Assembly (NCBI GenBank): GCA_043778225.1
Contig: JAYWGM010000070.1
Span: forward strand, 1 to 64,000
Length of the DNA: 64,000 bases
Direction: 5' to 3'
Source of the DNA: Deinococcales bacterium
GTDB lineage: Bacteria > Deinococcota > Deinococci > Deinococcales > JAAFIG01
The notes beneath the pieces are model-generated. The model saw only the letters and a program-made list of their open reading frames with translations. It was not told the DNA's origin and did no database searches. Position numbers and translations under genes: made by a program. Positions 1-64,000 of this stretch are shown piece after piece (position 1 is the first letter of the stretch; each line of letters starts with the position of its first letter).

Positions 1-98
1 TTTACCCGACCAACGGGAGTATTAACGATACCGAATTTAACGCGAGAACGGCAGTTTGCCGTTTTTTGGCAAACGAGAGTGATTAAGTTAATTCGGTA

Positions 99-911
99 TC
101 ACTGGGCAAAAATTGGTAAGTTGGTTTTTTCAATCAATCCCAGCGCGGCGGCTCGAGCCAATAAAGTCTCGACTGCTCGTTGTCCAACCTCGCCAACATC
201 AAGGCTAAAATCATTAACGTACAAATCTATATGGGCTTGCATCACGCTGTCTTCCATCTCGAGGGCGTGTTGCCGAATGTAGGCTTTTGGCTCAGTCGGG
301 TGGCTGTGGGCATACTCGAGGCTGGCACGAACGGCAGCGTTTAATTTTTGTAAAGTCTCGAGTGGTAAATCGCGCCGTGCGAGGATTGCGCCAAGTGGAA
401 TCGGTAAGCCCGTGTCGGCTTCCCACCATTGCCCCAAGTCCAGCAGCTTGAGCAAGCCATGCTGAGCATAAGTAAATCTGGATTCGTGGATAATCAGTCC
501 AGCATCTACTTGTCCATCTTCGATGGCTGGCATAATCTGGTCGTAGCGCATAAAAACAGTTTTGACTTCTGGGTGGGCAATTTGCAGTAAAAGCTGGGCG
601 GTGGTGAATTTGCCCGGACTTGCCACAGTCTTACCGCGCAAATCCTCGAGTTTAGTTTTTGCCACCAACAACGGACCGACACCACGCCCAAGCGCTCCGC
701 CAGCCCTAAGCGCCACATACTTATCCATAACGTGTGCGTAGGCATGGTACGAAATTTTGGTTAGCTCGAGTCTGGTTTCTTGCGCCCAAAGGTTCAGTGT
801 TTCGACATCCTCGAGAATTTCTTGTATCGGTTGCTCGAGTGGAATTTTGCCATGGGTCAAGGCATAAAAAATATAGGTATCGTTGGGGCAAAAAGAATAA
901 CCAAGTTTCAT
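99..911 (-). CDS. mqnD: 1,4-dihydroxy-6-naphthoate synthase (futalosine menaquinone pathway)
   Basis: N-terminal GYSxCPNDTYIF, DVETLN, GLIIHESRFTY, DLGQWW and LPIPLG motifs typical of MqnD. Confidence 0.93.
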   Translation of the reverse strand: MKLGYSFCPNDTYIFYALTHGKIPLEQPIQEILEDVETLNLWAQETRLELTKISYHAYAHVMDKYVALRAGGALGRGVGPLLVAKTKLEDLRGKTVASPGKFTTAQLLLQIAHPEVKTVFMRYDQIMPAIEDGQVDAGLIIHESRFTYAQHGLLKLLDLGQWWEADTGLPIPLGAILARRDLPLETLQKLNAAVRASLEYAHSHPTEPKAYIRQHALEMEDSVMQAHIDLYVNDFSLDVGEVGQRAVETLLARAAALGLIEKTNLPIFAQ

Positions 912-1005
912 GACTCGAGATTACAGCAAGCCAAAAAAACGTTTGACTCGAGTGCGTTTATGTCTTTTTTGCGTTAAACTGTTCTCAAACCCTTTAGGAG
1001 GCTTT

Positions 1006-2667
1006 ATGTTGCAATCCACCATGATGGATGTTCCGTTGACGATTACATTTCTGCTCGAGCGTGCCAAAGCGCTGTTTGCTAACCAAAAAATTATTTCGTA
1101 CTTGCCAGTTGGCATAGACCCCGAAACCAAGCTGCCGATTTCGGGGCGACTCGAGCAAACCTATGGGCAAATGTACGACCGCACCCACCAGTTAATGCAC
1201 GCCTTATCCGAGGCTGGCGTACAACCCGGCGACCGCGTAGCCACTTTTGCAACCAATTCGTTTCGTCATCTCGAGTTATATTTTGCTGTGCCGTGCATGG
1301 GTGCGGTCTGCCACATGATTAACATTCGGCTGCCCGACGACCAAGTTGCCTACATTATTAACCATGCTGAAGATAAAGTTCTGTTTGTTGATAATTTCCT
1401 CGCGCCGCGCTTACCTGCCATTTTAGCCAAATGTCCAAATATCAAACTGGTGGTGATTATGGGGGCTGTGCCGGCTTTGCCGCCTGGCGCACAAGACTAC
1501 GAGGCATTTATTGCCAACAAAGCCACCAGTTATGAATACCCCGAGATAGACGAGCGCCAAGCCTCGGGGATGTGTTACACCAGTGGCACAACCGGAAACC
1601 CAAAAGGTGTGCTGTACAGCCACCGTGCGATTGTGCTGCATTGTATTACCTCTGCCATGGGCGAACTGATGGGTTTATCGGAAGAAGACACGGTCTTGCC
1701 AATTGTGCCGATGTTTCATGTCAATGCGTGGGGTTATCCGTATTTATGTCCAACCGTTGGCTCAAATTTGGTTTTTACCAGTTTATTTACCGACCCCAAA
1801 TTTTTAGCCAAAGTTTTTGAAACAGAAAAAATTACCCACACCGCCGGTGTGCCGACCATCTGGATGGGCTTACTCGATGAACTCGACCGTGCTAAAAATG
1901 CTGGAGTGCCACATAACACCTCGAGCATTGTTTCTTTGGTGGTTGGCGGCAGTGCTGCCCCTCGAGGTATGATTGAGGCTTTTGGCGAACGCCACAACAT
2001 TCATGTGATTCACGCTTGGGGCATGACCGAAACCACACCGCTTGGGACAATGAATTTCTTAAAACCAGAGCATTATTTGCTCGAGAAAACCGCCAAGTAC
2101 GACCAGATGGCATTAACTGGTCGTCCGACGGCTTTGGTGCAACTCAAACTGGTGGATGAACACGATGATGTTCTGCCCAATGACGGGAAAACCATTGGGC
2201 GTTTGTTGGTGCGTGGTCCGTGGGTCACAGCCAGTTACTACAAAGACCAAGCTGGCACAGCCGCCACTCAACAAAATGGCTGGTTTGACACAGGCGATAT
2301 CGCCACGATTAACCCCGAGGGTTATATGCTCATCCAAGACCGCGCCAAAGACCTGATTAAATCGGGTGGGGAATGGATTAGCAGCGTAGACCTCGAGAAC
2401 ACCTTGATGGGGCATCCGAGTATCCGAGAAGCGGCAGTCGTCGCCGTGCCGCACCCTAAGTGGGATGAGCGCCCGCTCGGTGTGGTGGTGCTGCGTGAAG
2501 GCTCGAGTCTGGATAAAAGTAACCTTGATGCGTACTTACTCGAGCATGGTTTTGCTAAATGGATGCTGCCCGATGCCTACGAGGTGGTAGCGGAAATCCC
2601 CAAAACCACGGTTGGCAAGTTTTTGAAGCGAGCCTTGCGTGAACAATTTAAGGATTACAAGCTCTGA
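1006..2667 (+). CDS. Long-chain fatty acid--CoA ligase
   Basis: YTSGTTGNPKG AMP-binding motif, WGMTET, DRAKDLIKSGGEWISS. Start moved to ATG 1006, which follows an AGGAGG SD. Confidence 0.9.
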   Translation: MLQSTMMDVPLTITFLLERAKALFANQKIISYLPVGIDPETKLPISGRLEQTYGQMYDRTHQLMHALSEAGVQPGDRVATFATNSFRHLELYFAVPCMGAVCHMINIRLPDDQVAYIINHAEDKVLFVDNFLAPRLPAILAKCPNIKLVVIMGAVPALPPGAQDYEAFIANKATSYEYPEIDERQASGMCYTSGTTGNPKGVLYSHRAIVLHCITSAMGELMGLSEEDTVLPIVPMFHVNAWGYPYLCPTVGSNLVFTSLFTDPKFLAKVFETEKITHTAGVPTIWMGLLDELDRAKNAGVPHNTSSIVSLVVGGSAAPRGMIEAFGERHNIHVIHAWGMTETTPLGTMNFLKPEHYLLEKTAKYDQMALTGRPTALVQLKLVDEHDDVLPNDGKTIGRLLVRGPWVTASYYKDQAGTAATQQNGWFDTGDIATINPEGYMLIQDRAKDLIKSGGEWISSVDLENTLMGHPSIREAAVVAVPHPKWDERPLGVVVLREGSSLDKSNLDAYLLEHGFAKWMLPDAYEVVAEIPKTTVGKFLKRALREQFKDYKL

Positions 2668-2688
2668 AAGTAAAGACCTATCCACCAC

Positions 2689-2712
2689 TTTTGACCCTTT
2701 GACCTTTTAACC
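2689..2712. repeat. Octamer tandem repeat (TTTTGACC/CTTTGACC/TTTTAACC) x3
   Basis: Read directly; same family at 14221-14260 and 41571-41604. Confidence 0.7.
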
Positions 2713-2771
2713 CTGCTTTTTCTTGTGTAGCACAAGAACTGTATTTTAGTGCATAATTGACTCGAGAATTT

Positions 2772-4961
2772 ATGACCCCTGAACCCCTCAATCCTTTGGC
2801 AACTCGAGTGAACAATTTTTCACGTCAGCTTTTTGGCTGGCTACTCGACCTTAAAATTTTTGCCAAGCTGAGTTTATTCAGCGCTTTGGTGCTGATTCCT
2901 TTTATCATCTCGATTATTTGGGTTTTTTATACCCAGTCTGGGGCAGTGGTCGAACGTAATGCTGGGGTTCGACTCAAGGATGCAGCCTTTAGCGTCATGG
3001 ATCGTTTGGACAGGTCTTTGGCAGAACGCGCTAACGAAGTACAGGTTTTTGCGGCTTCACCCGAAGCCCGTTCGATGGATGCAGGCGATATTCAAAAATG
3101 GATGAATACCGTCACCAAAGCCTATGCACCAGTCTACCGCATGATGATGGTGATTGGTTTAGAAGGTCAAGTGATTGCTGCCAGTGGTTTGGATGCCACA
3201 GGCAAAACTGGCACAGCCAAAACAGCCATTGGCTCGAGTGTGGCTGACCAAGAATGGTTTCAAACTTTGCAGGGTGAGTCCTTTACAGCCTCGCCAGATA
3301 CCGCCACGGCAGTCATTAAGAATTTAGCTGTTGATTCTTTGGTCGAAAAAGTCTATGGACAGGATTTAGCCCTGACGATTGGTTTTTCAGGATTTATTTT
3401 TGACGATACCGACAGCGTGATTGGTTTTTGGAGTACCCGCTATAATTGGCAAGAGACTCAGAAACTCCTCAAAGAAGTCGAAACTCGAGCCGCCAAAGAC
3501 AAAGCCGAAACGCTGCGTTTTGTGATTGTCAAAAATAATCAAGTGATTGAGTCCTCGCGCAAGGAAGATATTTTTAAGCGTGAGATTACCGATTCGGCTT
3601 TTGCCATCGAGACCAACCTCGATATTGGTTACGGGCGCGGCGTGGACTACAACCAACCCCAAGGACAAGGTGTTGGCATCGAAGGTTGGTTTAAGGCTCG
3701 AGGGGTTCTCAAGGACTTGGGCTGGCAAACACTAGCAAGTCAATCTTTAGCCGAAGTCAATCGAGAACGCGATACCACAGTTCAGGCTTTGGTTATTCTT
3801 GGCTTGGTTGGCATTTTGCTGATAACGGCGGCGATGTACTTGCCTTCTTGGTATATTTCTAATGGGATGCAGCGCTTGACCCAAGCCGCTTCTGGGCTGG
3901 CTCGAGGTAACTTAGAGCAGCGCATTGGGCAGTACAACAAAGATGAACTTGGAGCGTTGGCGCAGTCGTTTCGCAATATGCGTCAGTACCAGCGCGATAT
4001 GGCTGGCGTGGCAAATCACATCACCAATGGCGATTTAACCCAAGAAGTGGTGGTTCAGTCTGAAGATGATGTCCTTGGACAAGCCTTTACCGGAATGCGA
4101 AGCAACCTGCGCGATTTAATGTCCACAGTACAGTCGGGTTCAGTTGCCCTAGCCAGTGCCTCGAGCCAAATTCTGGCTTCAAGTGGGCAACAAACCAGCA
4201 GCGTCAGCAGCCAGTTGGCGGCGGTTTCCCAAACCACCGCTACGGTAGATGAAGTCAAAACCACCTCCGAACAAGCCGTGGATTTAGCCCAAACAATCAA
4301 CGAGCAAAGCCAAAGTGTCAATCGGGTTGCCACGGCTGGGGCAGAAGCCGCCAAAGCTGCCAATCAAGGAATGTCCGAGATTCGGGCTCGAGTCCAGCAG
4401 ATTGCTGAAAATATTTTGGCATTGAGCGAGCAAACCCAAGCCATTGGCGAAATTATTGCGACCGTCAACGATATTGCTGACCAAAGTAATTTGTTAGCCC
4501 TCAATGCCGCCATCGAAGCCTCGAGGGCTGGCGACCAAGGCAAAGGCTTTGCGGTGGTTGCCCAAGAAATTCGGTTGCTTGCCGAACAATCTAAAGGCGC
4601 AACCAGTCAGGTCAGGTCTATTCTTGGCGAAATTCAACGCGCCACCAACAGTGCCGTCATGACCACCGAACAAGGCATTAAAGTAGCCGATGCCGGGGTG
4701 GACAGCATTGCTCGAGTCTCGAGTGTGATTGACGAACTCCAAGCTGCAATTCAAAACGCGGCTTACAACGCCCAACTGATTTCAGCTTCGGTGCGCCAGC
4801 ACAGCATTGGTATGGAGCAAATCTCGAGTGCCATGGGTAATATCTCGACTGCCACCGAAGAAAATTTAATCTCGACCCGCCATACCCGCGATTCGGCACA
4901 AAGTCTGTCGGAATTGGCAGGGCGTTTGCGCCAACTGACCGCCAAGTACCGAACAGATTAA
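2772..4961 (+). CDS. Methyl-accepting chemotaxis protein (2 TM, Cache-like sensor, HAMP, MCP signal domain)
   Basis: [34 protein letters not shown] hairpin motif; DELGALA HAMP motif. Confidence 0.92.
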
Positions 4962-4967
4962 GGGCGG

Positions 4968-5014
4968 AGGAAAGAGGAAATCAGGGCTTTACTTCCTCTT
5001 TCCTCCTTCCTCCT
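4968..5014. terminator. Probable bidirectional terminator between convergent genes
   Basis: AGGAAAGAGGAA...TTCCTCTTTCCT inverted repeat built from heptamer-like units. Confidence 0.55.
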
Positions 5015-5024
5015 GTATTTTCCT

Positions 5025-6722
5025 TTAGTTGGCTAAATCCACCACTTGCAAGGCTCGAGTTGCGGTGCTGACAAAAACCATGCTCGAGCCATTTGGTGCA
5101 ATTTGCCAGTCGTCTACGGCTACTTTGGTTTTCAAATCTGCCAGTACCCTTTGACTTTGGCGGCGTAAATCCCACTCGAGCAACAGATGTGTTCTGGCGC
5201 TTTGCATCGGAATAAACACAAGTCGGTTGGCATCCCGAAAGCGATACGAGCCAAACCAAGGTAGGCGTTTTGTGCTTCCGACACGGGTATCGAGGACAAA
5301 TAAACCATTTTTGGCTTGGCTGTCAAAAGCCACGTAATAAACCACCGAACGCCCATCTGGAGCAATACTGATGCCACGAAAATTGATGGCGCTCGAGAAG
5401 ACCTTTAAGTTTTTTGTTTTCAAGTCCAGCCGCATCAATTCACGGTCTCGAGTTTCGGCTTTGCGTTTGCCGTTGAGTAACAATTCTTGTTCGTTGAGCC
5501 AGCCGCTTAGCCCACCGCCATACAAAACCGCTACGGCTCGAGTATTGGCTAAACTAAAACGTGGTGTTGTGACCAGATTTGCTACAAAAATCGTGGTTTG
5601 CACTGTGTCAAAACGGGCGCTTTGGCTCGAGACAGCCCATGCAACTTGCTGCTCAGAGGGCGAAAAAACAACCGAAGTGGCTGGAACACCAACCCGTTCG
5701 CCAGTCGCTAAACGCTCGAGCCGTGTGGTCGAACCATTGAGTACAGCGTATTTTTCTGAAGGCGAGAGTCGCACCACACTCGAGAATTCTTTTCTAGCAG
5801 CGCTTAGGTTGTTGGCATCGAGGCTGTACAAGGCGGCTGGATTAGTATCTGGCTTATCCAAGAACATCACCCTGCTCGAGTCTGCACTCCAAAACGGCGC
5901 GACACAACAACCCGCCCTCGAGATGGCTCGAGCCACACCAACTGGCGCATCGGAAATGGTTTTGGGCGCTGGGCTGGCACGATAGATTCGGCTTGGGTAC
6001 GATAAAGAACGGTCATTGGCAGCCACTGGAAAAGGCAGCGCATAGTTATTCAGCAATGCCCCACCGCGCCGTGCGGCAGGCTGGTCTTCGAGCGTTTGCC
6101 ATTGGCGCGGGTTGGCTAAATCTCGCTGATAGCCGCGTCCAAAACTGCCAAGCAGTGCCAGTGTATTCCAATCGGCATTGATGTAGCCGACTGGATTCAA
6201 AAAACGCTGATGGCTGCTGTCTCTGATTTCAAGGTGCAAGTGCGGCGCACTGTAACAAGTCAGTTGTGAATCGCCAGACAGTCCAATCGGCTGCCCACGG
6301 GTCACGCGCTGCCCAATCCGTAAACTCGAGCGGCGCAACAAATGCCCATACAAACTCGAGAGATTGCCCGCGTGTTCAATCACCAAATTATGCGGCGCAC
6401 TGCCGTGTGAGCCGTCTATTTCCGAGACCACACCGTCACCGATTGCCAACACTGGCGTACCGCACTTGGCGCTGATGTCCATGCCAAAATGAATGCCCTG
6501 CCCAGCCCGATAATCGGTATTTCGCCGACGGTATGCCCCTGTGGTGTTGCCATATAATTGTCCAAGCAACCAAGAATTGACACCGGGCGCACCGCCAAAC
6601 GGCATTGAAAATTGTTTTGCTGGGGCTGCCAGACGCGAAATTGGCACGGCTGGTGCAGAATGCGAGAAAGCAAAAGAAAAAAGGCTCAGTCCCAGCAATA
6701 CCAGCACGGCTCGAGGATTCAT
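5025..6722 (-). CDS. Secreted M23 metallopeptidase with C-terminal TolB/WD40-like beta-propeller
   Basis: Signal peptide; HFGMD, LYGHL and PHLHLE M23 motifs; repeated WSxD/FSPS/IAPDG propeller blades. Confidence 0.85.
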   Translation of the reverse strand: MNPRAVLVLLGLSLFSFAFSHSAPAVPISRLAAPAKQFSMPFGGAPGVNSWLLGQLYGNTTGAYRRRNTDYRAGQGIHFGMDISAKCGTPVLAIGDGVVSEIDGSHGSAPHNLVIEHAGNLSSLYGHLLRRSSLRIGQRVTRGQPIGLSGDSQLTCYSAPHLHLEIRDSSHQRFLNPVGYINADWNTLALLGSFGRGYQRDLANPRQWQTLEDQPAARRGGALLNNYALPFPVAANDRSLSYPSRIYRASPAPKTISDAPVGVARAISRAGCCVAPFWSADSSRVMFLDKPDTNPAALYSLDANNLSAARKEFSSVVRLSPSEKYAVLNGSTTRLERLATGERVGVPATSVVFSPSEQQVAWAVSSQSARFDTVQTTIFVANLVTTPRFSLANTRAVAVLYGGGLSGWLNEQELLLNGKRKAETRDRELMRLDLKTKNLKVFSSAINFRGISIAPDGRSVVYYVAFDSQAKNGLFVLDTRVGSTKRLPWFGSYRFRDANRLVFIPMQSARTHLLLEWDLRRQSQRVLADLKTKVAVDDWQIAPNGSSMVFVSTATRALQVVDLAN

Positions 6723-6881
6723 GGGCTTGGTTATACGATTTTTTATCTGGCATTGCATCGGTCTACGTTACGGATATACCTTCACAATTGGTTTTTGTAG
6801 TTCGGCTTACCTCGAGTAAATTGACAAGAATTGTAAACTAAATAAGTTGTGGTTTAATTGCTAAGCACTAAGGAGAAAAAC

Positions 6882-7736
6882 ATGAGTTACGTTCATCCAG
6901 AAGTTTTGGTCAGCACCGATTGGGTTCTCGAGCATCATAAAGACGCAAACATTCGCATTGTCGAAGTTTCCGAAGATTTTTTATTGTACGAACAGGGTCA
7001 TGTACCTGGCAGTGTCAAAATTGATTGGCACACCAACTTGCAACGCGAGGACATCCGCGATTTTATAGATGCGGCTGGCTTTGAAAAACTGGTTTCACAA
7101 TTTGGCATCACCAACGATACAACCGTGGTTTTTTACGGCGATAAAAACAACTGGTGGGCAGCCTATGCTTTTTGGTTTTTTAAGTACAACGGTCACGGCA
7201 AGGCAGTCCTCATGAACGGCGGACGTGCCAAATGGGTCGCCGAACAAAAGCCGCTCGAGAAAGAAACCCCAACTTATGCTGCGACCGAGTACAAAGTGGC
7301 TTACCGCGATGCCAGCATCCGTGCTTTTATGCCCGAAGTCCTCAAGCACCTGCTCGAGGTCAATGCTGGACGCGGCGCACTGGTGGATGTTCGCAGCAGC
7401 GATGAATTCAGTGGCAAGCTGACCCATATGGCAGACTACCCACAAGAAGGCGCATTGCGTGGCGGTCACATCCCCGGCGCGATTTCGCAACCGTGGGCGC
7501 AGACTGTTAATCCAGATGGCACTTTCAAAAGCTACGAAGAATTAACCACGATGTATGGCAACAAAGGCGTAACTGCCGAAAAAGACATTATTGCCTACTG
7601 CCGCATTGCCGAACGCTCGAGCCACACATGGTTTATTCTTAAATACCTGCTTGGCTTTGAAAAAGTTCGCAATTACGACGGAAGCTGGACTGAATGGGGT
7701 AATGTGGTTGGTCTGCCAATCGAAAAAAGCGCTTAA
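6882..7736 (+). CDS. Tandem-domain rhodanese / thiosulfate sulfurtransferase
   Basis: [19 protein letters not shown] active-site loop, [16 protein letters not shown]. Confidence 0.93.
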
Positions 7737-7746
7737 AAATATGGTT

Positions 7747-7779
7747 AAAAGGCGAAGGATTTCCCTTCGCCTTTTTTGT
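7747..7779 (+). terminator. Rho-independent terminator
   Basis: AAAAGGCGAAGG-ATTTC-CCTTCGCCTTTTTT hairpin with T-tract. Confidence 0.85.
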
Positions 7780-7839
7780 TTAAGCTCGAGTAGCTAGGGT
7801 TCTCATATCCAAATAGGGAATTTGCGCTAGGCTTATTTC

Positions 7840-7992
7840 ATGAGCAAAGTCGGGACAGCACCTCAAATAGAAGCACCAAAACCACCAAAAGCCCCTGAGT
7901 CGTTTCGCGGGTTTCAACGTAGCACTATCAAAGTCCTCAAACCCCACGCATTTGACCCGATTCAAGCTATCCGTTTACAACGAGAAGAGTAA
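7840..7992 (+). CDS. Small putative antitoxin (50 aa; absent from the ORF track)
   Basis: MSKVGTAPQIEAPKPPKAPESFRGFQRSTIKVLKPHAFDPIQAIRLQREE*; TAATG overlap with the PIN gene; TAGGCT -10 before the ATG. Confidence 0.65.
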   Translation: MSKVGTAPQIEAPKPPKAPESFRGFQRSTIKVLKPHAFDPIQAIRLQREE

Positions 7993-8477
7993 TGCTTCAG
8001 ATTGAAAAAGAACACTTTGTGATTGATGCGAATATTGTTTTGTTGTCTTTCACGCCAAAAAGCGCACTAAAAGTAGGCTCAGAAGCAAATGCAATTGCAG
8101 CACAACAATTTCTAAGCCGCGCTCAACTCGAGAATGCTGTACTTCACGTTCCAGAACTGTTCGATTCAGAAATTCGCAACGTAATTTACCGTGATGGCAT
8201 CAGCAAAAGCGTTTTCACTTTTGATGACGGCTTAACGCTGGCTCGAGAAATCTTGGCTGCAAATTGGCAACGCCATATTCCAAATACAGAATTGGTGTAC
8301 CGCTTACAGCAAGCCATGAACCGCACAAAAAGCACGGGTGATGCCGAGTTCCTAGCCGTCGCTCAAGAATTGGACTGCCCACTGATTACGGCTGATTCAG
8401 CTTTGATTAGCACCGTGCAAAATCAAAAGATTCCAGTGCAAGTTTTTGCCGTGACCCAACATCCTTGGGGAGAATAA
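7992..8477 (+). CDS. vapC: PIN-domain (VapC-like) toxin
   Basis: FVIDANI, E, DAEFLAVA and LITAD acidic PIN motifs. Confidence 0.8.
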   Translation: MLQIEKEHFVIDANIVLLSFTPKSALKVGSEANAIAAQQFLSRAQLENAVLHVPELFDSEIRNVIYRDGISKSVFTFDDGLTLAREILAANWQRHIPNTELVYRLQQAMNRTKSTGDAEFLAVAQELDCPLITADSALISTVQNQKIPVQVFAVTQHPWGE

Positions 8478-8513
8478 GCTCGAGCAAAGATAGCCCCTCA
8501 CTCGAGCAATTTT

Positions 8514-9899
8514 TTAATGAATGTCAATGCCTTTTTGGCTGCGGTAACGTTGCATGGCTGCCCAATCGGTGGTGACTTCGGGCATGGTGGCGCTAATTTC
8601 GCGCCATGTGATGCTTTCGCGTCCGCTTGGGCGTTCGACCATCGTGATGCAGTTGTCCACTGGGCAGACATTGGCACACAAGGCACAGCCAACGCAGTCG
8701 GCTTCGCGCACCACAGGCTGAGGGCGGTCGGCGGTGGCAGCAGCTTTGCCGTTCTCGCGCAAGTCGTAGGCATAGGGCTGGACTTGTAGCCCGTCGCTCG
8801 AGTAGAGGTCTATGCACTGATGGGCGGTGTCGTTGCAAGCCACATAGCAAAGGTTGCAGTTGATGCAAGTTTTCGGGTTAATTTCGGCAACCGCACGATA
8901 CGACAAATCAAAATCCTGAAATTGTGAGATTCGCGGCACGCTCGCGCCAATAATCTGGTTGACGCTCGAGTAGCCTTTTTCGTCCAGCCAATTCGATAAG
9001 CCGTCGCAAAGGTCGTCTATCAGGCGGTAGCCGTAGTGCATTACGGCGGTGCAGACTTGGAGTGAATGAGCGCCCAAAAGCAGAAATTCGGCAGCATCTT
9101 TCCAAGTGCTGATGCCACCCATACCACTGATTTTTGTACCCGCTTCTTTTAATTCTTGTAAGCCCGCAATTGAAGACAGCATATTTAAGGCAATTGGTTT
9201 GACGGCAGGTCCTGCGTAGCCACCATGTCCGCCTTTGCCACCGACGTTGGGTGTAATCGCAAAAGAATCCAAATCCACGCCAATAATGCTATTGATGGTG
9301 TTGATTAAACTGACTGCTGGTGCGCCACCTTTAACGGCGGCTCGAGCCGGATAATTAATATCGGTGATGTTTGGCGTGAGTTTAATAATAATCGGAATTC
9401 TCGAGATACCAGTTGTCCATTCCGAAATTTGTTCGATTAAATCTGGGTTCTGCCCGACTGCACTGCCCATACCGCGCTCGGACATCCCATGTGGGCAACC
9501 ACAGTTAATTTCGATACCATCCGCCCCAGTGTCTTCAATGCGCCGCACAATGTCTACCCATGCTTGCTGTTGGCATTCGACCATTGCTGAAACAATCACG
9601 GCACGGTCTGCCCAGTGTTTTTTAACATCGGCAATTTCGGCAAGGTTAAGTTCTATCGGGCGGTCAGAAATCAGTTCGACATTGTTAATTGCCAGCATTT
9701 TTTGTCCGCCATAATGCCAAGCGCCGTAACGGTTAGAAACATTCAGCACAGGCGAACCGATGGTTTTCCAAACTGCCCCGCCCCAGCCATACTCGAATGC
9801 CTTATGAATCTGAGCGCCCGAATTTGTCGGCGGCGCGGAAGCCAACCAAAACGGGTTGGGCGATTTGATACCGCAAAAGTCTATTGAAAGGTCAGCCAT
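8514..9899 (-). CDS. preA: NAD-dependent dihydropyrimidine dehydrogenase subunit PreA
   Basis: SPNPFWLASAPPT, NCGCPHGMSERGMG, KLTPN, C-terminal 2x[4Fe-4S] motifs. Confidence 0.95.
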   Translation of the reverse strand: MADLSIDFCGIKSPNPFWLASAPPTNSGAQIHKAFEYGWGGAVWKTIGSPVLNVSNRYGAWHYGGQKMLAINNVELISDRPIELNLAEIADVKKHWADRAVIVSAMVECQQQAWVDIVRRIEDTGADGIEINCGCPHGMSERGMGSAVGQNPDLIEQISEWTTGISRIPIIIKLTPNITDINYPARAAVKGGAPAVSLINTINSIIGVDLDSFAITPNVGGKGGHGGYAGPAVKPIALNMLSSIAGLQELKEAGTKISGMGGISTWKDAAEFLLLGAHSLQVCTAVMHYGYRLIDDLCDGLSNWLDEKGYSSVNQIIGASVPRISQFQDFDLSYRAVAEINPKTCINCNLCYVACNDTAHQCIDLYSSDGLQVQPYAYDLRENGKAAATADRPQPVVREADCVGCALCANVCPVDNCITMVERPSGRESITWREISATMPEVTTDWAAMQRYRSQKGIDIH

Positions 9900-9908
9900 A
9901 AATTTCTC

Positions 9909-11279
9909 CTAGTCGTTGGCGATTGCTTGTCGCTCGAGCATAGTGGTGATGCTTTTGGCGGCAATTTTACCATCCTGAACCGCCATCACCGTACTGGCAT
10001 CACCTTTTAAGCGCACGCAATCACCACCCGCAAAAACTTTGGGATTGCTGGTATGGTTGCCAGCATCAGTCACGATGTACCCATTTTGAAGCTCGAGTCC
10101 AAGAGCGGTCGCTAAATCGGTTTGCTTATTCTGCCCAATGGCTTTAATCACCATATCCACCTCGAGATGATGGTTGCTGCCCTGTACAACTTCGGGGCGC
10201 GGTCTGCCGCTTGAATCTGGTGCGCCAAGTTGCATGGTTACACACTCGAGACTTTTTACGCCACTCGAGTCGCCGTGAATCGCTACTGGCGTGGTCAAAA
10301 AACGGTATTCAATGCCTTCTTGTTTGGCAAATTCGTACTCAAAACCATAAGCCGTCATTTCGGCTTGGCTGCGACGGTAAACAAGAGTGACTCGAGCCGC
10401 GCCAAGCCGTTTAGCAATCGTGGCTGCATCTATGGCGGTGTTGCCCGCGCCAATGACCGCCACTTTTTTTCCAACTGGGATGCTCGAGTACGGGTTGGTT
10501 TTGGTCAGTTCGATAAAGTCTATGCCGTCCACCACGCCGCCCAAGTCTTCGCCAGCAATACCAAGTTTAGGCACATTGCCAAGTCCAGTACCGATAAAAA
10601 TCGCATCGTAGTCGCGCTCGAGGTCGGCAATTTGGATGTCTATGCCAACCGTGACCCCAGTTTTAATTTCCACGCCTAAACGCTTGACCATTTCGACTTC
10701 GGCAAGCGAAATTTCGACGGGTTCGCGGAATACCACAATGCCGTAAGTGCTTAACCCACCAGCCAAGTCTTTTTTCTCGAGGACAGTTACGCCATGCCCA
10801 AGTTTAGCCAGTTCAGCAGCGCAGCTTAGACCGGCGGGTCCAGCCCCGATGATCACAATTTTCTTGCCCGTTGGCTTGCCGGGCTTAAATAAATCCAGTT
10901 TGCGAGTTAGCACATAATCGGTGGCATAGCGTTGCAAGCGCCCAATTTCGATCGGTTTGTGGTCGCTGCCCAGCACACACGCCCCTTCGCAGAGTTCTTG
11001 TACTGGGCAAACCCGAGCGCAAGTGCTGCCTAAAAAATTACTCTCGAGAATCACCCGGGCGCTGCCACGGGTGTTTTCGGTGGCGATTTTTTTAATAAAA
11101 CTTGGTATATCAATGTGCGTTGGGCAAGCGTGAACACATGGCGCATCAAAGCAAAATAAGCACCTATTGGCTTCGATGACTGCTTCTCTGGGCGTAAGGG
11201 CAGGATGAATTTCTTGAAAGTTTTTCTCGAGTTGGTCAATGCCAAAAGGCGAAGTCTCGAGGCTGCTGGATGGTATCAT
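9909..11279 (-). CDS. preT: Dihydropyrimidine dehydrogenase subunit PreT (GltD-like flavoprotein)
   Basis: EANRCLFCFDAPCVHACPT, GAGPAG, GAGNTAID; adjacent to preA. Confidence 0.9.
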   Translation of the reverse strand: MIPSSSLETSPFGIDQLEKNFQEIHPALTPREAVIEANRCLFCFDAPCVHACPTHIDIPSFIKKIATENTRGSARVILESNFLGSTCARVCPVQELCEGACVLGSDHKPIEIGRLQRYATDYVLTRKLDLFKPGKPTGKKIVIIGAGPAGLSCAAELAKLGHGVTVLEKKDLAGGLSTYGIVVFREPVEISLAEVEMVKRLGVEIKTGVTVGIDIQIADLERDYDAIFIGTGLGNVPKLGIAGEDLGGVVDGIDFIELTKTNPYSSIPVGKKVAVIGAGNTAIDAATIAKRLGAARVTLVYRRSQAEMTAYGFEYEFAKQEGIEYRFLTTPVAIHGDSSGVKSLECVTMQLGAPDSSGRPRPEVVQGSNHHLEVDMVIKAIGQNKQTDLATALGLELQNGYIVTDAGNHTSNPKVFAGGDCVRLKGDASTVMAVQDGKIAAKSITTMLERQAIAND

Positions 11280-11353
11280 GTGACCTCCGAAAGAGAACGA
11301 AATGACCTTCGGGTGCAGCCCTCGCAGGAGCTATATTAACCTGTGTTTACACT

Positions 11354-12232
11354 TCATAGTTTATTGGGTGCGGCAGAGCCTGTCAAATTGATGATTAAAC
11401 CAACGCCACTTAAAATAATTAGGCAAGCTAAAACTTTGACCAGTGTGATTTGTTCACCCAAAAATAATGTCCCCCAGAGCATACTGAAAATTGGAATAAT
11501 CAGGGTCACGGTACTGGCTTTTTCTGCGCCTAGCTCGAGGATTAAACGAAAATATAATAAATACGCCACCGCCGTGCAGACCAATCCCAAGGCAAAAATA
11601 CAAAGAATCACGGTCTGATTCGGCAGACTGCGTGGTAAATCAAATGGCAGCACCAACGCCAAAGCAAGGCTCGAGGCAAGTTGTGAACCAACTGCCGCCC
11701 CAAGTGGCGGTGCGCCATTTAAGAATTTTTTGGTCAGATTGCTCGAGAGTCCATAGCAAAAAGTAGCAATCAGCATTGCCAGAATGGATAACGTGGTTTG
11801 TAGACTTGGCTCGAGTGGCGACCAGCCAACCAGCACCGCCACGCCAACCACACCAAGCAGCAAACCCAATCCTTTAGAGACCGTAAACTGTCCACCAAAA
11901 GCAATCGCGCCAATCAGCACACTCCACATTGGGGTGGTGGCGTTAAGAATAGCCGCCATCGAAGCGGTCAGTTTAAGTTGGGCAAAAGCAATCAGGGCAA
12001 AAGGAAAACCACTGTTCAGCACGCCAATAAGACCGTACTAACGCCACCGATGCCACTCGAGGTTGGCTCGAGTTACAGCCGCAAAAACCAACAAAGCCAC
12101 GCCAGCAATTAAAACCCGAGTTTCGGCTGTCCAAACTGCCCCAAGCACAGGGGCAATGACGCGGTAAAAAATAAAACTTGTTCCCCAAATGGCAGCCAGC
12201 AGTAAAAGCTGTACGGTACTGGCTCGAGTCAC
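11354..12232 (-). pseudogene. EamA/DMT transporter interrupted by an in-frame TAG at 12038-12040
   Basis: ORFs 12038-12286 and 11354-12022 share a frame; LLAAIWGTSF...WHRWR*YGLIGVLNSGFPF; GTG start overlaps the upstream TGA. Confidence 0.8.
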
Positions 12233-12615
12233 GAAACTGTACCCGCCGAAGCGGTTTGGCTTGGATTGACATAATGGGTGCGCCATTGTCCCTGAGCCAC
12301 CCCAAAAATCAGGGTGTCTTCAAAGCTGCCATCAAAATGCTTGGCATTGGCTGGTACAAGCAAATACGAACCCGCGCCATAAACCTTGAGCAAATCTGGT
12401 TCGTGTTGCTGACCATAGCCAAGGTGTAATGCGCCACTGACCACAAAAACTCGAGCCTCTTGGCTATGCCAGTGTGGTGCATCCCAAAAGCCGGCTGGAA
12501 TAAAAAAAGCATAACTGAATAATCCAACTTCACGCGAACCCTCGAGCAGCGCGTATTTTGTGCCATCCGTCCCGATTTCTTGCCAGACGATGTTATCGGT
12601 TTGCCATGCGTTCAT
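12229..12615 (-). CDS. Cupin-domain protein (DUF4437-like)
   Basis: PHWHS...VVSG...H cupin motifs; coupled to ogt by ATGA overlap. Confidence 0.75.
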   Translation of the reverse strand: MNAWQTDNIVWQEIGTDGTKYALLEGSREVGLFSYAFFIPAGFWDAPHWHSQEARVFVVSGALHLGYGQQHEPDLLKVYGAGSYLLVPANAKHFDGSFEDTLIFGVAQGQWRTHYVNPSQTASAGTVS

Positions 12616-13106
12616 AAAAACCTACTTTCATGCTCGAGCAACCATTTTTTGCGCTCTATCCCGCCAGCATAGCCCGTTAATTTGCCATTTGCACCAATCA
12701 CACGGTGGCACGGCAAAATTAAGCTAATTGGATTTAAGCCATTGGTCATGCCGACGGCTCGAGTGGCTTTTTGGTTGCCGATGTGGGTAGCCAGAGCCAA
12801 GTAGCTCCAAGTCTGACCGATTGGAATCTGCAAAAGTGCCTGCCAAACTTGTTGCTGAAAAACTGTGCCGCCAGTCTCGGTCGGGATGTTGTGTAACGCC
12901 TTGAGTTGCCCCGCAAAATAATTTTGTACGGTTTGAGTAAAAGCCAGTTCTCGAGGCTCGAGGTTGTAAACCCCAAAGCGTTGCTCGAGTAATTTAGCAA
13001 TACGTTCGGTGTTATCGGCAAAATCCAGTAACACCACAGCTTTTTCGTTTGCCACAAGCTGCATTTGACCAATTGGAGTCTCGAGAAAATCGGTGAATAA
13101 GTTCAT
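12612..13106 (-). CDS. ogt: Methylated-DNA--protein-cysteine methyltransferase
   Basis: PCHRV active site, RAVG, GYAGG..RKKWLL. Confidence 0.95.
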   Translation of the reverse strand: MNLFTDFLETPIGQMQLVANEKAVVLLDFADNTERIAKLLEQRFGVYNLEPRELAFTQTVQNYFAGQLKALHNIPTETGGTVFQQQVWQALLQIPIGQTWSYLALATHIGNQKATRAVGMTNGLNPISLILPCHRVIGANGKLTGYAGGIERKKWLLEHESRFL

Positions 13107-13143
13107 ATTCTACCCCTCAATAGCTAGGAAAGTCTTTGGTTTT

Positions 13144-13172
13144 TGTAGGGGCGAACCCCTGTGTTCGCCCTG
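13144..13172 (+). repeat. GTAG-type REP palindrome
   Basis: TGTAGGGGCGAACCCCTGTGTTCGCCCTG; near-identical inverted copy at 57933-57960. Confidence 0.8.
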
Positions 13173-13223
13173 TGAGACGATGTAATTTGAATTATCTTTG
13201 GAGAATGTTCTGAACTATCCTCT

Positions 13224-13286
13224 TCTGATACGACAGTTCATACAGCACCTCTGATACGGCAGTTCATACAGCACCTCTGATACGGC
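13224..13286. repeat. 26-bp tandem duplication of the adaA 3' end
   Basis: AGTTCATACAGCACCTCTGATACGGC at 13235-13260 and 13261-13286, plus a partial copy at 13224-13234. Confidence 0.9.
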
Positions 13287-13809: not shown

Positions 13810-13883
13810 GGTTTGTATTCTGAGGCTTTTGGACTTTGGGCGCTACCTGATTCTTGTCGGTAAATTCTGCTACACTCTGCGCC

Positions 13884-14213: not shown

Positions 14214-14220
14214 GAGCTAG

Positions 14221-14260
14221 GGTTAAAAGGTCAAAGGGTTAAAAGGTTAAAAGGTCAAAA
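14221..14260. repeat. Octamer tandem repeat GGTYAAAR x5
   Basis: GGTTAAAA GGTCAAAG GGTTAAAA GGTTAAAA GGTCAAAA. Confidence 0.8.
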
Positions 14261-14320
14261 GGTAGTTAGGATTTAATTTCACCTTGCCTTTGTTCTCATG
14301 CTTGGCTTTTATGCTGACTT

Positions 14321-52319: not shown

Positions 52320-52461
52320 GAGTGCTTTTGATTTTCAGGTTGAAATTGGTTGGATGGATTATGGTTTTTCGCTTCAAGGGATTGTGGGTTTAGACTTTTT
52401 GTTGAAAACCCGTGCAGTGATTGATCTTGCAGATTTGGAATTGCGGTCTGTCTCGAGCTAA
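52318..52461 (+). pseudogene. C-terminal fragment of a retropepsin-like aspartic protease
   Basis: MSAFDFQVEIGWMDYGFSLQGIVGLDFLLKTRAVIDLADLELRSVSS*; GIVGLDFL motif present, catalytic DTG half missing, in-frame TAA at 52309. Confidence 0.6.
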
Positions 52462-54752
52462 ACCCTTATATTGGCTATAGTCACGCCATGCCCGCCTTCG
52501 TTGGGGTTGGCATCGCTGTAACTCGAGACACGCTTGTCGGTTTTTAGGTAATCCCGCACCACACGCCGCAGTATTCCTTCGCCCTTGCCGTGCAAAATCC
52601 TGATTTGTCCTTCGCGCAGGGCTTGGGCTTCTGAAATAAAATTGCGAACTTCTTCAATCGCTTCTTCAACATGAGCGCCGCGTAAATTCAATTCTTTGGT
52701 GAAACTCGAGGGAGAGATATAAACCCCGCCACTGGCAGCCTTGACGGTTACACCTGTTGGGTTTTTGAGGCGCACATCGCGGCGCTTCAAAGTTACTTTT
52801 AAGAGCCCCATCTGTACCAGCACATCGTCGCCGCGCAACTCGAGAATTTTGCCATTTGTGCCGTAACTCGGCACTTCGACGCTTGCGCCGGCTTTTAAGG
52901 CTTCTGGTTCGCGTTGCACCGCACTCATTTGTGGGCGTTCAGCTTGGGCAGCCGCCCTGAGGTCGCGCAGTTCCTGCATCACTTTGGGGCGTTCGGTTTG
53001 TAAGTCGTTTTGGGTGCGGTTTTTAAGTTGCCGTACTTGCTCGATGGCACTGCGGTAAACGCTATCGGCTTTGGCTTGGGCATCGGTCAGAAACTGATTC
53101 TTTTGCTGTTCTAAACTCTCGAGTTTCTGGCGTAAGTCTTTTTGTTCGCGTTCGGCATTTTCTTTGGCAACTCGAGCCGCAGCAGCATCGGTCTCGAGGT
53201 TCTTGCGTTCTATTTCAAGGGCTTCGAGTAACTTTTCGACTTGCAGTCCTTCTGGTCCTAAAATCGTTTCGCCTCTGGTCACGACGCTGTTTGGAAATCC
53301 CAAGCGCCGCGCAATTGCCAAGGCATACGAGCGTCCGGGTGCGCCGATGCTTAATTTATAAGTCGGGCGAAGATTCTCAACATCAAAGCTCATGCTGGCA
53401 TTGACCACATCTTGGCGTTCGGAAGCAAAGATTTTTAGGGGCGTGAGGTGGCTTGTGATAATCCCCCTTGCGCCTTGGGTTAAAAGCTGTTCTATCATCG
53501 CTTGAGAAAGTGCTGCGCCTTCGGCAGGGTCTGTGCCGCTTCCTAGCTCGTCAATTAAAACGAGCGTGCCAGATTTGGCTCGCTCGAGAATTGTGGCTAG
53601 GTTTTTCAGGTGGGCGGCAAAGGTGCTTAGGCTCTCGAGTAAGTTCTGACCATCGCCAATATCGCACAGGATTTCTTCAACAATCGGTAATTTGGCGCTG
53701 TAGGCTTTGACAAATAAGCCGCTTTGGTGCATCGCAATTGCTAAGCCCAAACTTTTTAGGGTTACGGTTTTACCGCCCATGTTTGGACCAGTTATTAAAA
53801 GTAAGCGTCGCCTCGAGTCAAGGCGAAACGAATTGGGGATACAATCTGTAATTAAAGGGTGGCGAATATCGATAACTTCAAAGTCGCCTTCTGGGCTGAC
53901 ATCGGGGCGGGTTAAATCCCATTCTTTACACAAAGCAGCTTTGGCAGCAATCAAATCGAGTTCGGCAATCGCCCGCAAGGTTTCCCACAAGCCCGGTTCG
54001 TCGGCAACCATACGGGTAAGCTCGAGCAAAATTCGGGCGACTTCTTGTTCTTCTTCGATGACTGTGCGGGCAAGTTCGTTATTCAGTGGCACAACACTGG
54101 CGGGTTCGATAAAGACCGTTTGTTGGCTGGCGCTCGAGTCCACGACAATCCCGGGGACTTGATTTTCAAAACTCGAGCGGACTGGAATCACGTATCTATC
54201 GCGGCGAATGGTGATGATTTTGTCTTGCAGGTATTCGCCGTTTCTTTCCATGATGCGCGTTAAACTGTCGCGGATTTGGCTGCGAAGCGGTTCGATACGG
54301 CGGCGCAGTTGCCTGAGTTTTGGGCTGGCATCGTCGCGCACTGTACCATCACGGTTGAGTTTCTCGAGAACACTGCGGGTTAAAATCGTGTGCTGACCGA
54401 TGCGTTCGGCAACGTGCATCAATGGACCAACACTATGCTGACCGATGCTGCGCCGCAAGGTCATGGCAGCCTCGAGCGTATACGCCACATCGAGTAATTC
54501 TGGCGCGGCGACCAATTGTCCTTGGTTGAGTTTACTCAGCACCCCACGCACATCGGTAATCCCGCCAAGGTGTAAACTCGAGCCAATCAGGGCATCCTCG
54601 AGTTGTTCAATCATGGTGCGAATCTGGTAGGCATCAGAAGTTGGCATTAAAGCCAAAGCCAGTTCGCGTCCCATGGTGGTACTCGAGCGTTCCGCAATCG
54701 CTTGGCGAATCGGCTGAAACTCTAGAACTTCTAAGGCTCGGTTGGTTATCAC
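52458..54752 (-). CDS. mutS2: MutS2 endonuclease
   Basis: ITGPNMGGKT, STFAAH, DELGSGTDP, C-terminal Smr (LRG..HGKGEG). Confidence 0.95.
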   Translation of the reverse strand: MITNRALEVLEFQPIRQAIAERSSTTMGRELALALMPTSDAYQIRTMIEQLEDALIGSSLHLGGITDVRGVLSKLNQGQLVAAPELLDVAYTLEAAMTLRRSIGQHSVGPLMHVAERIGQHTILTRSVLEKLNRDGTVRDDASPKLRQLRRRIEPLRSQIRDSLTRIMERNGEYLQDKIITIRRDRYVIPVRSSFENQVPGIVVDSSASQQTVFIEPASVVPLNNELARTVIEEEQEVARILLELTRMVADEPGLWETLRAIAELDLIAAKAALCKEWDLTRPDVSPEGDFEVIDIRHPLITDCIPNSFRLDSRRRLLLITGPNMGGKTVTLKSLGLAIAMHQSGLFVKAYSAKLPIVEEILCDIGDGQNLLESLSTFAAHLKNLATILERAKSGTLVLIDELGSGTDPAEGAALSQAMIEQLLTQGARGIITSHLTPLKIFASERQDVVNASMSFDVENLRPTYKLSIGAPGRSYALAIARRLGFPNSVVTRGETILGPEGLQVEKLLEALEIERKNLETDAAAARVAKENAEREQKDLRQKLESLEQQKNQFLTDAQAKADSVYRSAIEQVRQLKNRTQNDLQTERPKVMQELRDLRAAAQAERPQMSAVQREPEALKAGASVEVPSYGTNGKILELRGDDVLVQMGLLKVTLKRRDVRLKNPTGVTVKAASGGVYISPSSFTKELNLRGAHVEEAIEEVRNFISEAQALREGQIRILHGKGEGILRRVVRDYLKTDKRVSSYSDANPNEGGHGVTIANIRV

Positions 54753-62498: not shown

Positions 62499-62514
62499 AG
62501 CTAAAATTCTAGCA

Positions 62515-62961
62515 TCAAAAACCAAATGCCTCGAGAACCACGGATGGAATTCGTTTTGGTCGGCTGGTGATTGGGTCTATCCAAACCCAGTTGGTTTTGA
62601 TTTGCACCAGCAGCGCATTATCCTCGAGTCGCCGCATTTCGTGGTAACGCACGGCTCTAAAACCCGCGCATTCGGCTGTCCAAGTGGTGTCCTCGAGTGT
62701 ATCGCCCAGCACCGCCGATTTGTGGTATTTGATGATGTGACCATGAACCACTGGCACAATCCCAAGGCTTTTCATTTTGTTAAATGCCATGCCTAGCCGC
62801 GCCGAATGAATAATCGCAGCCGTATCAGCATAGCGCAAGTACACACTGTTATTGACGTGTTCGAGTTCGTCTATATCGGCAGCTGCCACAATAAAGTCTT
62901 GTTTATGAAACCGACGCTCACTCAGGGTCGGGTCAAAGTCTTGGAATACGAATTCGGGCAT
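62515..62961 (-). CDS. Acyl-CoA thioesterase (4HBT family)
   Basis: DIDELEHVNNSVYL, IKYHKSA..GD. Confidence 0.88.
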   Translation of the reverse strand: MPEFVFQDFDPTLSERRFHKQDFIVAAADIDELEHVNNSVYLRYADTAAIIHSARLGMAFNKMKSLGIVPVVHGHIIKYHKSAVLGDTLEDTTWTAECAGFRAVRYHEMRRLEDNALLVQIKTNWVWIDPITSRPKRIPSVVLEAFGF

Positions 62962-62977
62962 TCTAGGCAGTCTAGCA

Positions 62978-63160
62978 TCATGAGCGGGTATGCTTGCGGT
63001 ACGCTGATGGCGATGTACCACAGGCTTGTTCAAAGGCGGCATAAAAGCGGCTGGCAGAACCAAAACCAGATTCAAAAGCAATCTCGAGGATGCTTTGCTT
63101 GGTTGTGACCAACAAACGCTGGGCATGGGCAAGGCGGTGCTGGGTCAGGTACTCGAGTAT
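62978..63160 (-). pseudogene. C-terminal fragment of an AraC-family regulator
   Basis: LEYLTQHRLAHAQRLL..ILEIAFESGFGSASRFY..SPSAYR; first HTH and sensor domain absent. Confidence 0.8.
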
Positions 63161-63248
63161 CGCCTGCCTGAGAATACAGGACAAAAACAGTATTTTTCGG
63201 GATGTTTTTATTGTTTTGTTGCGCTAGATTATTCCTAAGGAGAAAATC

Positions 63249-64000
63249 ATGTCATCCATGCCAGAAGTCTCAAACCCAGATGTTCGTGTTGTTCATGTGC
63301 CACCAATGCCCGTACCAACCGAGCAGCGCAGCCAATTTCATTTATCGCCAGAACAAATCCAGTTCTTTGACGATAACGGTTATTTGGTTTTGCGCGGCTT
63401 GATTAGCGGGCAGTTACTCGAGCGTTTACAAGCCGCAGGTTCGGGCTGGATTGAACGTGGACTCGAGACAACCCCACAAGACCCACACTACACCGATTAT
63501 CAATTTGCCAAGCGCAGCTACGGACAAGTCTTTTACCGCGTAGACTACTTACACAATAAATCCGAAGTGGCTTCGCTCGAGTTGCTTGGTTGCCCCCAAG
63601 TGCTGGGGATTGCCGAAAGCCTTTGTGGTCAAAATTTTGTGCCAACTTACGAGAGCATGGTTTTTAAGCAAGCTGGCGATGGTGAGCAAATTCCTTGGCA
63701 TCAGGACGCGGTACATCCACGGCAGTACCGTGTTTTTAACTTGGATTTATATTTGGATCGCTCGAGTATTGATGGTGGTGCATTGCGGGTTGTTCCGGGG
63801 ACACAGAATAAAATTCTTGATATTTGTGAAATTCAAGACCGCTTTGGTTGGGATGCGCCAAGTGTGATTCAAGTCGAGATGCAACCCGGCGATGTATTGC
63901 TGCACGATGTCATGGTGCTTCATGGCTCTGAACGTACCCAAGGACAAGCGTTGCGGCGCACGATTTACTATGAATTTCGAGCCGCTGAAGAAATTCTTGC
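63249..64000 (+). CDS. Phytanoyl-CoA dioxygenase family (Fe/2OG) protein, runs off the window end
   Basis: My translation: FFDDNGYLVL, PWHQD, GALRVVPGT, PGDVLLHD..LHGS; AAGGAG SD. Confidence 0.88.
   Translation, partial: MSSMPEVSNPDVRVVHVPPMPVPTEQRSQFHLSPEQIQFFDDNGYLVLRGLISGQLLERLQAAGSGWIERGLETTPQDPHYTDYQFAKRSYGQVFYRVDYLHNKSEVASLELLGCPQVLGIAESLCGQNFVPTYESMVFKQAGDGEQIPWHQDAVHPRQYRVFNLDLYLDRSSIDGGALRVVPGTQNKILDICEIQDRFGWDAPSVIQVEMQPGDVLLHDVMVLHGSERTQGQALRRTIYYEFRAAEEIL

Follow-up and report, generated by a model that had tools for sequence, protein, structure and literature searches.

The 64-kb stretch of DNA considered here raises the question of why a single six-base palindrome, CTCGAG, should recur throughout it, in genes and between them. 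The window (the whole stretch analysed, bases 1–64000 of contig C70) comes from the assembly of an uncultured Deinococcales bacterium (4.03 Mb, 107 contigs, 89% complete), and its gene content is ordinary housekeeping and metabolic (acyl-CoA ligases, MCP, pullulanase, MutS2 and peptidases). A preliminary description of the sequence had counted about 48 copies of CTCGAG by hand in positions 1–7000 and had extrapolated this to several hundred. Exactly 48 copies were listed in those positions, and 413 were counted in the window, about one per 155 bp, at a GC content of 46–51% along its length. Shuffles of the window that preserved its dinucleotides gave a mean of 8.03 copies (SD 2.66, maximum 15); none of the 100 reached 413, and the excess over the shuffles was 51-fold.

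Abundance, form and distribution of CTCGAG

The whole genome (4,029,277 bases) contained 24,877 copies of CTCGAG, one per 162 bp, with a zero-order observed/expected ratio (O/E) of 26.7. Among all hexamers it ranked first, about three times ahead of any other; CGATCG was present in only 182 copies. The O/E from a maximum-order Markov model was 1.16 for the genome, a value that is uninformative because the conditioning 5-mers are themselves produced by CTCGAG. Full-text searches of the literature, from which subscription journals were missing, did not bring up any description of an over-abundance of CTCGAG, or of any iterated palindrome, in the Deinococcota.

The bases flanking CTCGAG were near random, in genes and intergenic spacers alike, and all four palindromic 8-mers that contain it occurred less often than expected; the unit is thus the hexamer and nothing longer, and the random flanks also mean that the copies are not a repeat element. 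Placement was near Poisson (mean 18.5 and variance 24.5 copies in 3-kb windows), and the only periodicity in the spacing was one of three bases, reflecting the frame in which CTCGAG encodes Leu-Glu. Very short spacings were under-represented. A spacing of 6 bp was absent genome-wide, because it would create GAGCTC, itself present in 24 copies in the genome, while a spacing of 7 bp was seen 123 times with a random middle base. The tandem pair that had been reported at 4711/4718 has this spacing and both of its positions were found. The proposal that CTCGAG commonly lies in hairpin stems fared differently, since pairs at the hairpin-like spacings of 8–20 bp were fewer than the approximately 154 per bin expected at random. 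Only eight regions, together 39 kb with a GC content of 0.34–0.45, were poor in CTCGAG, the other 99% of the genome being evenly covered; recently imported DNA lacks the word.

The MutS2 gene of the window, which is not proposed as part of any mechanism, was used to find relatives, which were uncultured ‘Deinococcales bacterium’ metagenome-assembled genomes. Nine MutS2 loci with 67–94% identity carried 4.5–7.8 CTCGAG per kb at a GC content of 0.45–0.60, whereas eight Deinococcus-type MutS2 loci (identity 53–56% for Deinococcus) carried 0–0.6 per kb. All 18 other genomes of the family, from five genera, were rich in the word (12,028–35,442 copies each, compared with 0–568 copies of the reversed word GAGCTC), so that the trait was found in 19 of 19 family genomes, over a GC range from about 42% to 60%. 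Deinococcus genomes were depleted in CTCGAG. Sister families (f2, f4 and f5; L342–L347, one 20-kb sample per genome) showed O/E values of 5–8, mostly in the Leu-Glu frame; Leu-Glu was spelled CTCGAG above the expectation from codon usage in each sample, clearly in five of the six and marginally in G063 (0.28 vs 0.23).

Gene order was poorly kept within the genus when window positions 1–20000 were compared with seven genomes (G001–G007): neighbouring genes lay on different contigs, and nucleotide identity was 71–87%.

Coding sequence, proteome and orthologous sites

Coding and non-coding DNA were compared using a crude gene set of 3,475 greedy, non-overlapping open reading frames (ORFs) of at least 100 aa, which covered 88.7% of the genome. 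The density of CTCGAG was 6.17 per kb in coding and 6.21 per kb in non-coding DNA, and the O/E against local composition was 26.2 and 31.8, respectively. Of the coding copies, 13,000 (59%) were in the Leu-Glu frame and 4,436 and 4,604 in the other two. When codons were shuffled synonymously, keeping the amino acids and the codon usage of each gene (10 replicates), 2,320 ± 47 copies were left, against 22,075 observed, a 9.5-fold excess. This excess extended to all three frames, for which 1,626, 380 and 313 copies were expected and 13,010, 4,448 and 4,617 observed.

These results bear on the possibility that base composition, a preference for certain codons or dipeptides, or a family of dispersed repeats produces CTCGAG passively as a by-product. 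The majority share of the Leu-Glu frame among coding copies would agree with such an origin, as would the milder excess of the sister families, which lies mostly in that frame. However, the dinucleotide shuffles and, in every frame, the codon-preserving shuffle fall far short of the observed counts, and the density is equal in non-coding DNA. An origin of this kind is hardly credible. The preliminary description had likewise held that the motif occurs in all three frames and in intergenic DNA, that it is not a codon-pair effect and that it even shapes protein sequence, and each of these statements was borne out.

The effect on codon choice and on the proteome was large. Outside Leu-Glu contexts, CTC made up 9.1% of Leu codons and GAG 22.7% of Glu codons, from which 2.1% of Leu-Glu pairs would be expected to read CTCGAG; in fact 69% of the 18,842 Leu-Glu pairs did so (odds ratio 106). 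Relative to the prediction from residue frequencies, Leu-Glu dipeptides were 2.33-fold and Ser-Ser dipeptides 1.59-fold in excess in the proteome. The Leu-Glu excess was 1.9–2.3 in the relatives’ loci within the family and 1.09 in Deinococcus. It is firmly established that the target of the bias is the DNA word as such and that the whole family has this bias in common; its strength suffices to overrule codon preferences and to make Leu-Glu twice as frequent in the proteome. From the natural log of the excess ratios, by an argument of the Li–Bulmer type, the scaled bias would be approximately 3.3–4.7.

The evolution of the sites was followed in codon-wise alignments of 10 window genes with orthologues from genomes of the same genus, five of 15 ORFs having been dropped because orthologue coverage was too low among the loci fetched. 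Nucleotide identity in the alignments was 79% overall and 57% at third codon positions. CTCGAG was retained at 307 of 471 positions, compared with a baseline hexamer identity of 29%. In conserved Leu-Glu pairs both codons were identical in 80% of cases, against 4–38% for other Leu-X pairs. CTCGAG was present in both genomes at 173 of 246 conserved Leu-Glu pairs, where approximately 153 would be expected if the two were independent; conservation is therefore largely a consequence of the high equilibrium frequency of the word.

Intermediate states were scarce. Among 560 aligned pairs with CTCGAG on at least one side, 43 (7.7%) differed by one letter, compared with 36% for other hexamers; as a share of the non-identical pairs, one-letter differences made up 17% for CTCGAG and 50% for other hexamers. 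Hexamers one letter away from CTCGAG were conserved in 16% of cases, below the 29% baseline, and their aligned partner was CTCGAG in 11.5%, whereas any one specific neighbour would account for about 2%. With one-letter states unstable and inclined to turn into CTCGAG, and with substitution the only origin, CTCGAG behaves as an attractor that is reached by point substitution at any place in the genome.

Insertion of whole hexamers was considered as a source of the copies and was ruled out, none of 866 motif positions in the orthologue alignments being at an indel.

Conservation of the sites above controls and the even coverage of 99% of the genome are also what selection on each site for a chromosome-level function would produce. 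The word could then be a binding site for a nucleoid protein, or a mark of own DNA read by a defence or repair nuclease and imitated by phages; the richness of invader DNA in CTCGAG, described below, is as mimicry predicts, and for HIP1, the highly iterated palindrome of cyanobacteria, parts of Xu, Lawrence and Durand 2018 (PMC5861425) speak for selection and ascribe to it a part in the structure of the nucleoid. Against this, the conservation observed is mostly that expected from equilibrium frequency (173 of 246 vs approximately 153), and with about 25,000 sites placed nearly at random the loss of any single one should matter little. RecC (PF04257) was not found in any of the 61 Deinococcales genomes searched, which leaves no basis for a RecBCD/Chi version of this function (AddAB was not tested), and the searches turned up no protein that would read the word. 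Per-site selection is on balance unlikely.

Restriction background, methyltransferases and CRISPR spacers

Most palindromes other than CTCGAG were rare in the genome. An O/E of 0.1 or less was found for 34 of the 64 hexamer palindromes, compared with 84 of 4,032 non-palindromes; the median O/E values of the two groups were 0.08 and 0.82, respectively. GGCC had 131 copies, GATC an O/E of 0.13, GGCGCC three copies, and GACGTC, GGGCCC and AGGCCT one copy each. Since most palindromes have been purged, CTCGAG is the single strong exception. Heavy restriction traffic is typical of highly transformable bacteria.

Approximately 24 distinct loci in the genome matched DNA methyltransferase families (PF07669, PF01555, PF00145, PF02384 and PF02086), and they comprised Eco57I/N6_Mtase, N6_N4, C5 and D12 classes. 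Within the scope of these five Pfam families and of genomes that are mostly incomplete, no methyltransferase orthologue common to the 19 family genomes was found. A 501-aa Eco57I-type methylase (L020) was present in only two of the 19. C5 methylases had no match in G010 (91% complete) or G002, and N6_N4 (N4/N6) methylases had none in G013, which is a complete 5.09-Mb chromosome, or in G014 or G002. D12 methylases were matched in 18 of the 19 genomes; they fell into 11 groups at 45% identity, six of which had at least two members, none was universal, and the largest, with seven genomes, was absent from the present genome. Seven methylases of G013 had no orthologue in this genome (best identity 25–33%, compared with 55–78% for housekeeping neighbours). 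Comparison of L018 and L020 with solved structures gave matches to M.TaqI, BseCI and BREX methylases in the catalytic domain only (E-values 1e-7 to 1e-9) and assigned no specificity.

It is possible that unrelated methylases of the same specificity occur across the family. On present evidence CTCGAG is not read by any methyltransferase of the usual families that is conserved in the lineage, and the suggestion in the preliminary description that an orphan methylase together with biased repair created the bias found no support among the loci examined.

CTCGAG is a classical type II site, and the many methylases of the genome might suggest that it is the target of a host restriction-modification system of the XhoI type. 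A search of this genome for the XhoI nuclease family (PF04555) was negative, which is weak evidence given that the model matched no control genome either. Restriction sites are generally avoided, as are 34 of the 64 hexamer palindromes here, whereas CTCGAG is enriched in the host. The DNA sampled by the CRISPR systems of these bacteria points the same way. The type I-E-like array on contig C80 (Table 1) held 43 spacers (1,399 bp) with 10 copies of CTCGAG, and arrays of four relatives held 76 spacers (2,666 bp) with 11; six irregular spacers of L327 were left out, the same array having been counted from a second reading. Pooled, the 119 spacers (4,065 bp) contained 21 copies against about one by chance, roughly the density of the host. 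As the DNA sampled by CRISPR is itself rich in CTCGAG, the word is not a restriction target. The phage-like contig matched by one spacer of this genome (L340, Table 1) likewise carried 18 copies in its 6.4 kb (2.8 per kb) and no GAGCTC. An XhoI-type target is thus a very improbable explanation of the abundance.

The contig L340 gave PHROG matches to a virion protein, a terminase fragment and an endolysin-type peptidase, and a protein search identified no true viral relative. It also encodes a RelE-like toxin adjoining the terminase-like fragment.

Chromosomal DNA was sampled as well. One spacer of the same-genus relative G003 matched an ordinary ORF of the present genome (Table 1), which encodes 156 aa with a cystatin-like domain and lies among housekeeping genes, with those for a tRNA synthetase, prmA, a MoxR ATPase and a sigma factor around it. 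DNA handled as foreign by these cells is thus rich in CTCGAG, and part of it comes from the chromosomes of congeners. None of the C80 spacers matched the rest of this assembly, and the C80 repeat was found in no other family genome; searches of the family genomes with the G013 array returned only further arrays and no protospacer, and one spacer searched as an exact word had no viral match.

Pattern scans of viral contigs gave, among the matches listed, mostly high-GC phages in which GAGCTC was also frequent. Nine high-GC IMG/VR contigs (L278, L297, L313, L238, L252, L281, L289, L270 and L308) had 3–7 CTCGAG per kb at O/E values of 10–21, some of them almost without GAGCTC. These viral contigs showed no similarity to this genome and no match to its spacers.

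Several CRISPR repeats of the relatives G009, G003, G006 and G013 (L330, L331, L332, L333, L350 and L351) contain CTCGAG themselves, at differing positions. In two arrays of G013 the repeat is CTTTCGAG in one and CTCTCGAG in the other; one substitution makes CTCGAG, and there is one further difference.

Biased repair inside the cell has to be weighed next. Mismatches within sites that closely resemble CTCGAG would be corrected towards CTCGAG, in the manner of very short patch (VSP) repair or of the ratchet proposed by Elhai, with or without a methylase, and any DNA replicating in these cells would drift towards the word. Several observations agree with this: the strictly symmetric 6-bp unit, as read by type II enzymes; the origin of copies by substitution only, with unstable one-off states; the nearly equal force in coding and non-coding DNA; the islands of imported DNA that are poor in CTCGAG; and the richness of CRISPR-sampled DNA, including the phage-like target at 2.8 per kb, since copies borne by phages are explained more simply in this way. 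A precedent is the methyl-directed mismatch-repair ratchet set out for HIP1 in parts of Elhai 2015 (PMC4390886).

On the other side, none of the expected components was found. Vsr (PF03852) was not detected in this genome (89% complete), this genome and G013 have no methylase orthologue in common, and the C5, N4/N6 and D12 classes are patchy or missing among relatives as described above. VSP repair is known to shift word frequencies only slightly, compared with a 27-fold excess of CTCGAG here. One-letter variants of CTCGAG were also roughly ordinary in frequency genome-wide (O/E 0.15–1.41); transitions were the commonest, and with O/E values of 1.16–1.41 the one-off transition variants showed no genome-wide depletion. 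Biased repair is a plausible but somewhat unlikely account of the whole.

A possible tag for DNA exchange between relatives

The reading that we tentatively prefer, although it is less likely than not, links the CTCGAG bias to the exchange of DNA among related cells, in which the word would act as a tag for uptake or recombination. A lineage-wide fixation bias on the DNA word, and not on codons, peptides or RNA, would keep CTCGAG saturated. The word would be a tag of own-kind DNA that favours the uptake and/or the recombination of incoming conspecific DNA, acting like an uptake sequence or a Chi site, a role now proposed for HIP1 as well. Gene conversion (molecular drive) might then spread alleles with CTCGAG, and selection would not have to act on 25,000 sites one by one. 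The exact symmetric 6-bp specificity suggests a reader resembling a type II restriction or modification enzyme.

Several hints point towards exchange: the competence gene product ComEC in 18 of the 19 family genomes, the purge of palindromes together with the approximately 24 methylase loci, the spacer directed at a congener’s chromosome, the richness of the spacers in CTCGAG, and the work on HIP1. According to parts of a preprint (bioRxiv 10.1101/2024.09.10.611283), methylated HIP1 sites raise natural transformation by up to more than 100-fold and a Chi-like role is suggested for them, and parts of a further study (PMC13756078) link HIP1 abundance, by correlation, to the proteins of type IV secretion and transformation.

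A number of points weigh against this tentative reading. ComEC was also present in the Deinococcus and Thermus controls, which lack the extreme trait, and its presence is therefore only permissive. The effect of HIP1 on transformation depends on methylation, whereas no methyltransferase common to the present family was found, and searches of this lineage revealed no specificity factor, that is, no protein that reads CTCGAG. Copies at hairpin spacings are in deficit, and the orthologue pairs that describe the dynamics of the word are not independent, with several relatives per gene and 10 genes. The link to exchange depends on a single match to a chromosome among the 69 relatives’ spacers of 25–45 nt that were compared with this genome. 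One spacer of this genome targets the phage-like contig with its 2.8 CTCGAG per kb. If most spacers are derived from phages, a repair bias in the cell itself would explain their richness more simply than uptake does.

The preliminary description had called CTCGAG HIP1-like, and the genome O/E, the occurrence in all frames, the equal density in coding and non-coding DNA and the conserved sites uphold this. Like HIP1 (GCGATCGC), CTCGAG is a short GC-containing palindrome that is over-represented tens of fold, within and between genes and in all frames; its sites are kept in related genomes more often than controls, imported DNA has few of them, and the host genomes are rich in restriction-modification systems. 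The differences are that CTCGAG has 6 bp and not 8, belongs to the Deinococcota and not to the cyanobacteria, reaches about six times the density, measurably alters the proteome (Leu-Glu 2.3-fold) and occurs in a lineage without a conserved cognate methyltransferase among the five families. Parts of Elhai 2015 (PMC4390886) give HIP sites at approximately one per kb and describe specific methylases that accompany HIP1 and alternate HIPs.

The DNA uptake sequence (DUS) of Neisseria and the uptake signal sequence (USS) of Pasteurellaceae resemble CTCGAG in being over-represented on both strands and in all frames, in shaping peptides, in being absent from foreign DNA and in being explicable by molecular drive without selection on each site, and ComEC is present here. 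Known uptake sequences are 9–12 bp long, non-palindromic, spaced at about one per kb and often placed as inverted pairs in terminators. CTCGAG differs in being a palindrome of strictly 6 bp, in its density of 6.2 per kb and in having no surplus of pairs at hairpin spacings, and these differences also speak against an uptake tag.

The Dcm/Vsr system of E. coli (CCWGG/CTWGG) offers a parallel in which sequence-specific repair pushes near-cognate sites to one word; here Vsr was not found, C5 methylases are not universal in the family and the effect is far larger. Chi, as read by RecBCD or AddAB, is likewise an over-represented short word that marks own DNA in recombination and repair. Chi is asymmetric and orientation-skewed, whereas CTCGAG is palindromic, and RecC is missing from all 61 Deinococcales genomes searched. 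Finally, targets of XhoI-type restriction are avoided, while CTCGAG is enriched in the host, in spacers and in the phage-like contig.

A larger claim would be that a family of the Deinococcota evolved its own methylase-independent 6-bp marker of kin DNA, driven by itself to saturation through exchange, which rewrote about one in two Leu-Glu pairs and also marks the mobile DNA of the lineage; we consider this doubtful in its entirety. If true, highly iterated palindromes would be a general, convergent device for the recognition of kin DNA in highly transformable, restriction-rich bacteria and not a cyanobacterial oddity. For thirty years HIP1 has lacked an explanation, and cyanobacteria were its only known hosts; with a denser counterpart in a different phylum, the two can be compared, and any explanation must now fit both cyanobacteria and Deinococcota. 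Models are constrained in several ways. Saturation can be reached without a methyltransferase conserved in the lineage, CTCGAG does not serve as a restriction target, it is also present in the DNA that CRISPR has sampled, and a force of scaled strength of about 3–5 would suffice to reshape a proteome. The sister families with a mild excess, some of which may be cultivable, could give an experimental entry. In practical terms, scarcity of CTCGAG flags imported DNA in these genomes, and its density could help to assign metagenomic contigs, plasmids and phages to the lineage.

Table 1. Positions of the features discussed (window coordinates unless a contig or locus is named)
Feature	Position	Strand	Remarks
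Field of 413 CTCGAG copies	1..64000		Across intergenic spacers and genes of unrelated function
Two CTCGAG copies 7 bp apart (CTCGAGnCTCGAG)	4711..4723		Starts at 4711 and 4718; closest spacing that the genome allows
Second pair of CTCGAG copies 7 bp apart	12950..12962		Starts at 12950 and 12957
MutS2 gene	52458..54752	-	MutS_V, Smr and MSSS domains; marker for relatives; among the 10 orthologue alignments
Type I-E-like CRISPR array (L334)	C80:16-2691		44 repeats of 29 nt; truncated at the end of the contig
Phage-like contig L340 (G001:C690)	6.4 kb		In a same-genus genome; matched 31/33 by spacer 40 of this genome
Target of a G003 spacer	C72:55233-55263 (L348:10233-10263)		30/31 match to an ordinary chromosomal ORF of this genome
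Repeat of approximately 100 bp	1-104		At the start of the window

The repeat at the start of the window recurs with 83–100% identity at many places in the genome and is also present in genomes of the same genus. It often lies at contig ends (for example those of C107, C75, C94, C67, C80, C99 and C2) and is probably a small element, scattered through the genome, at which assemblies break.

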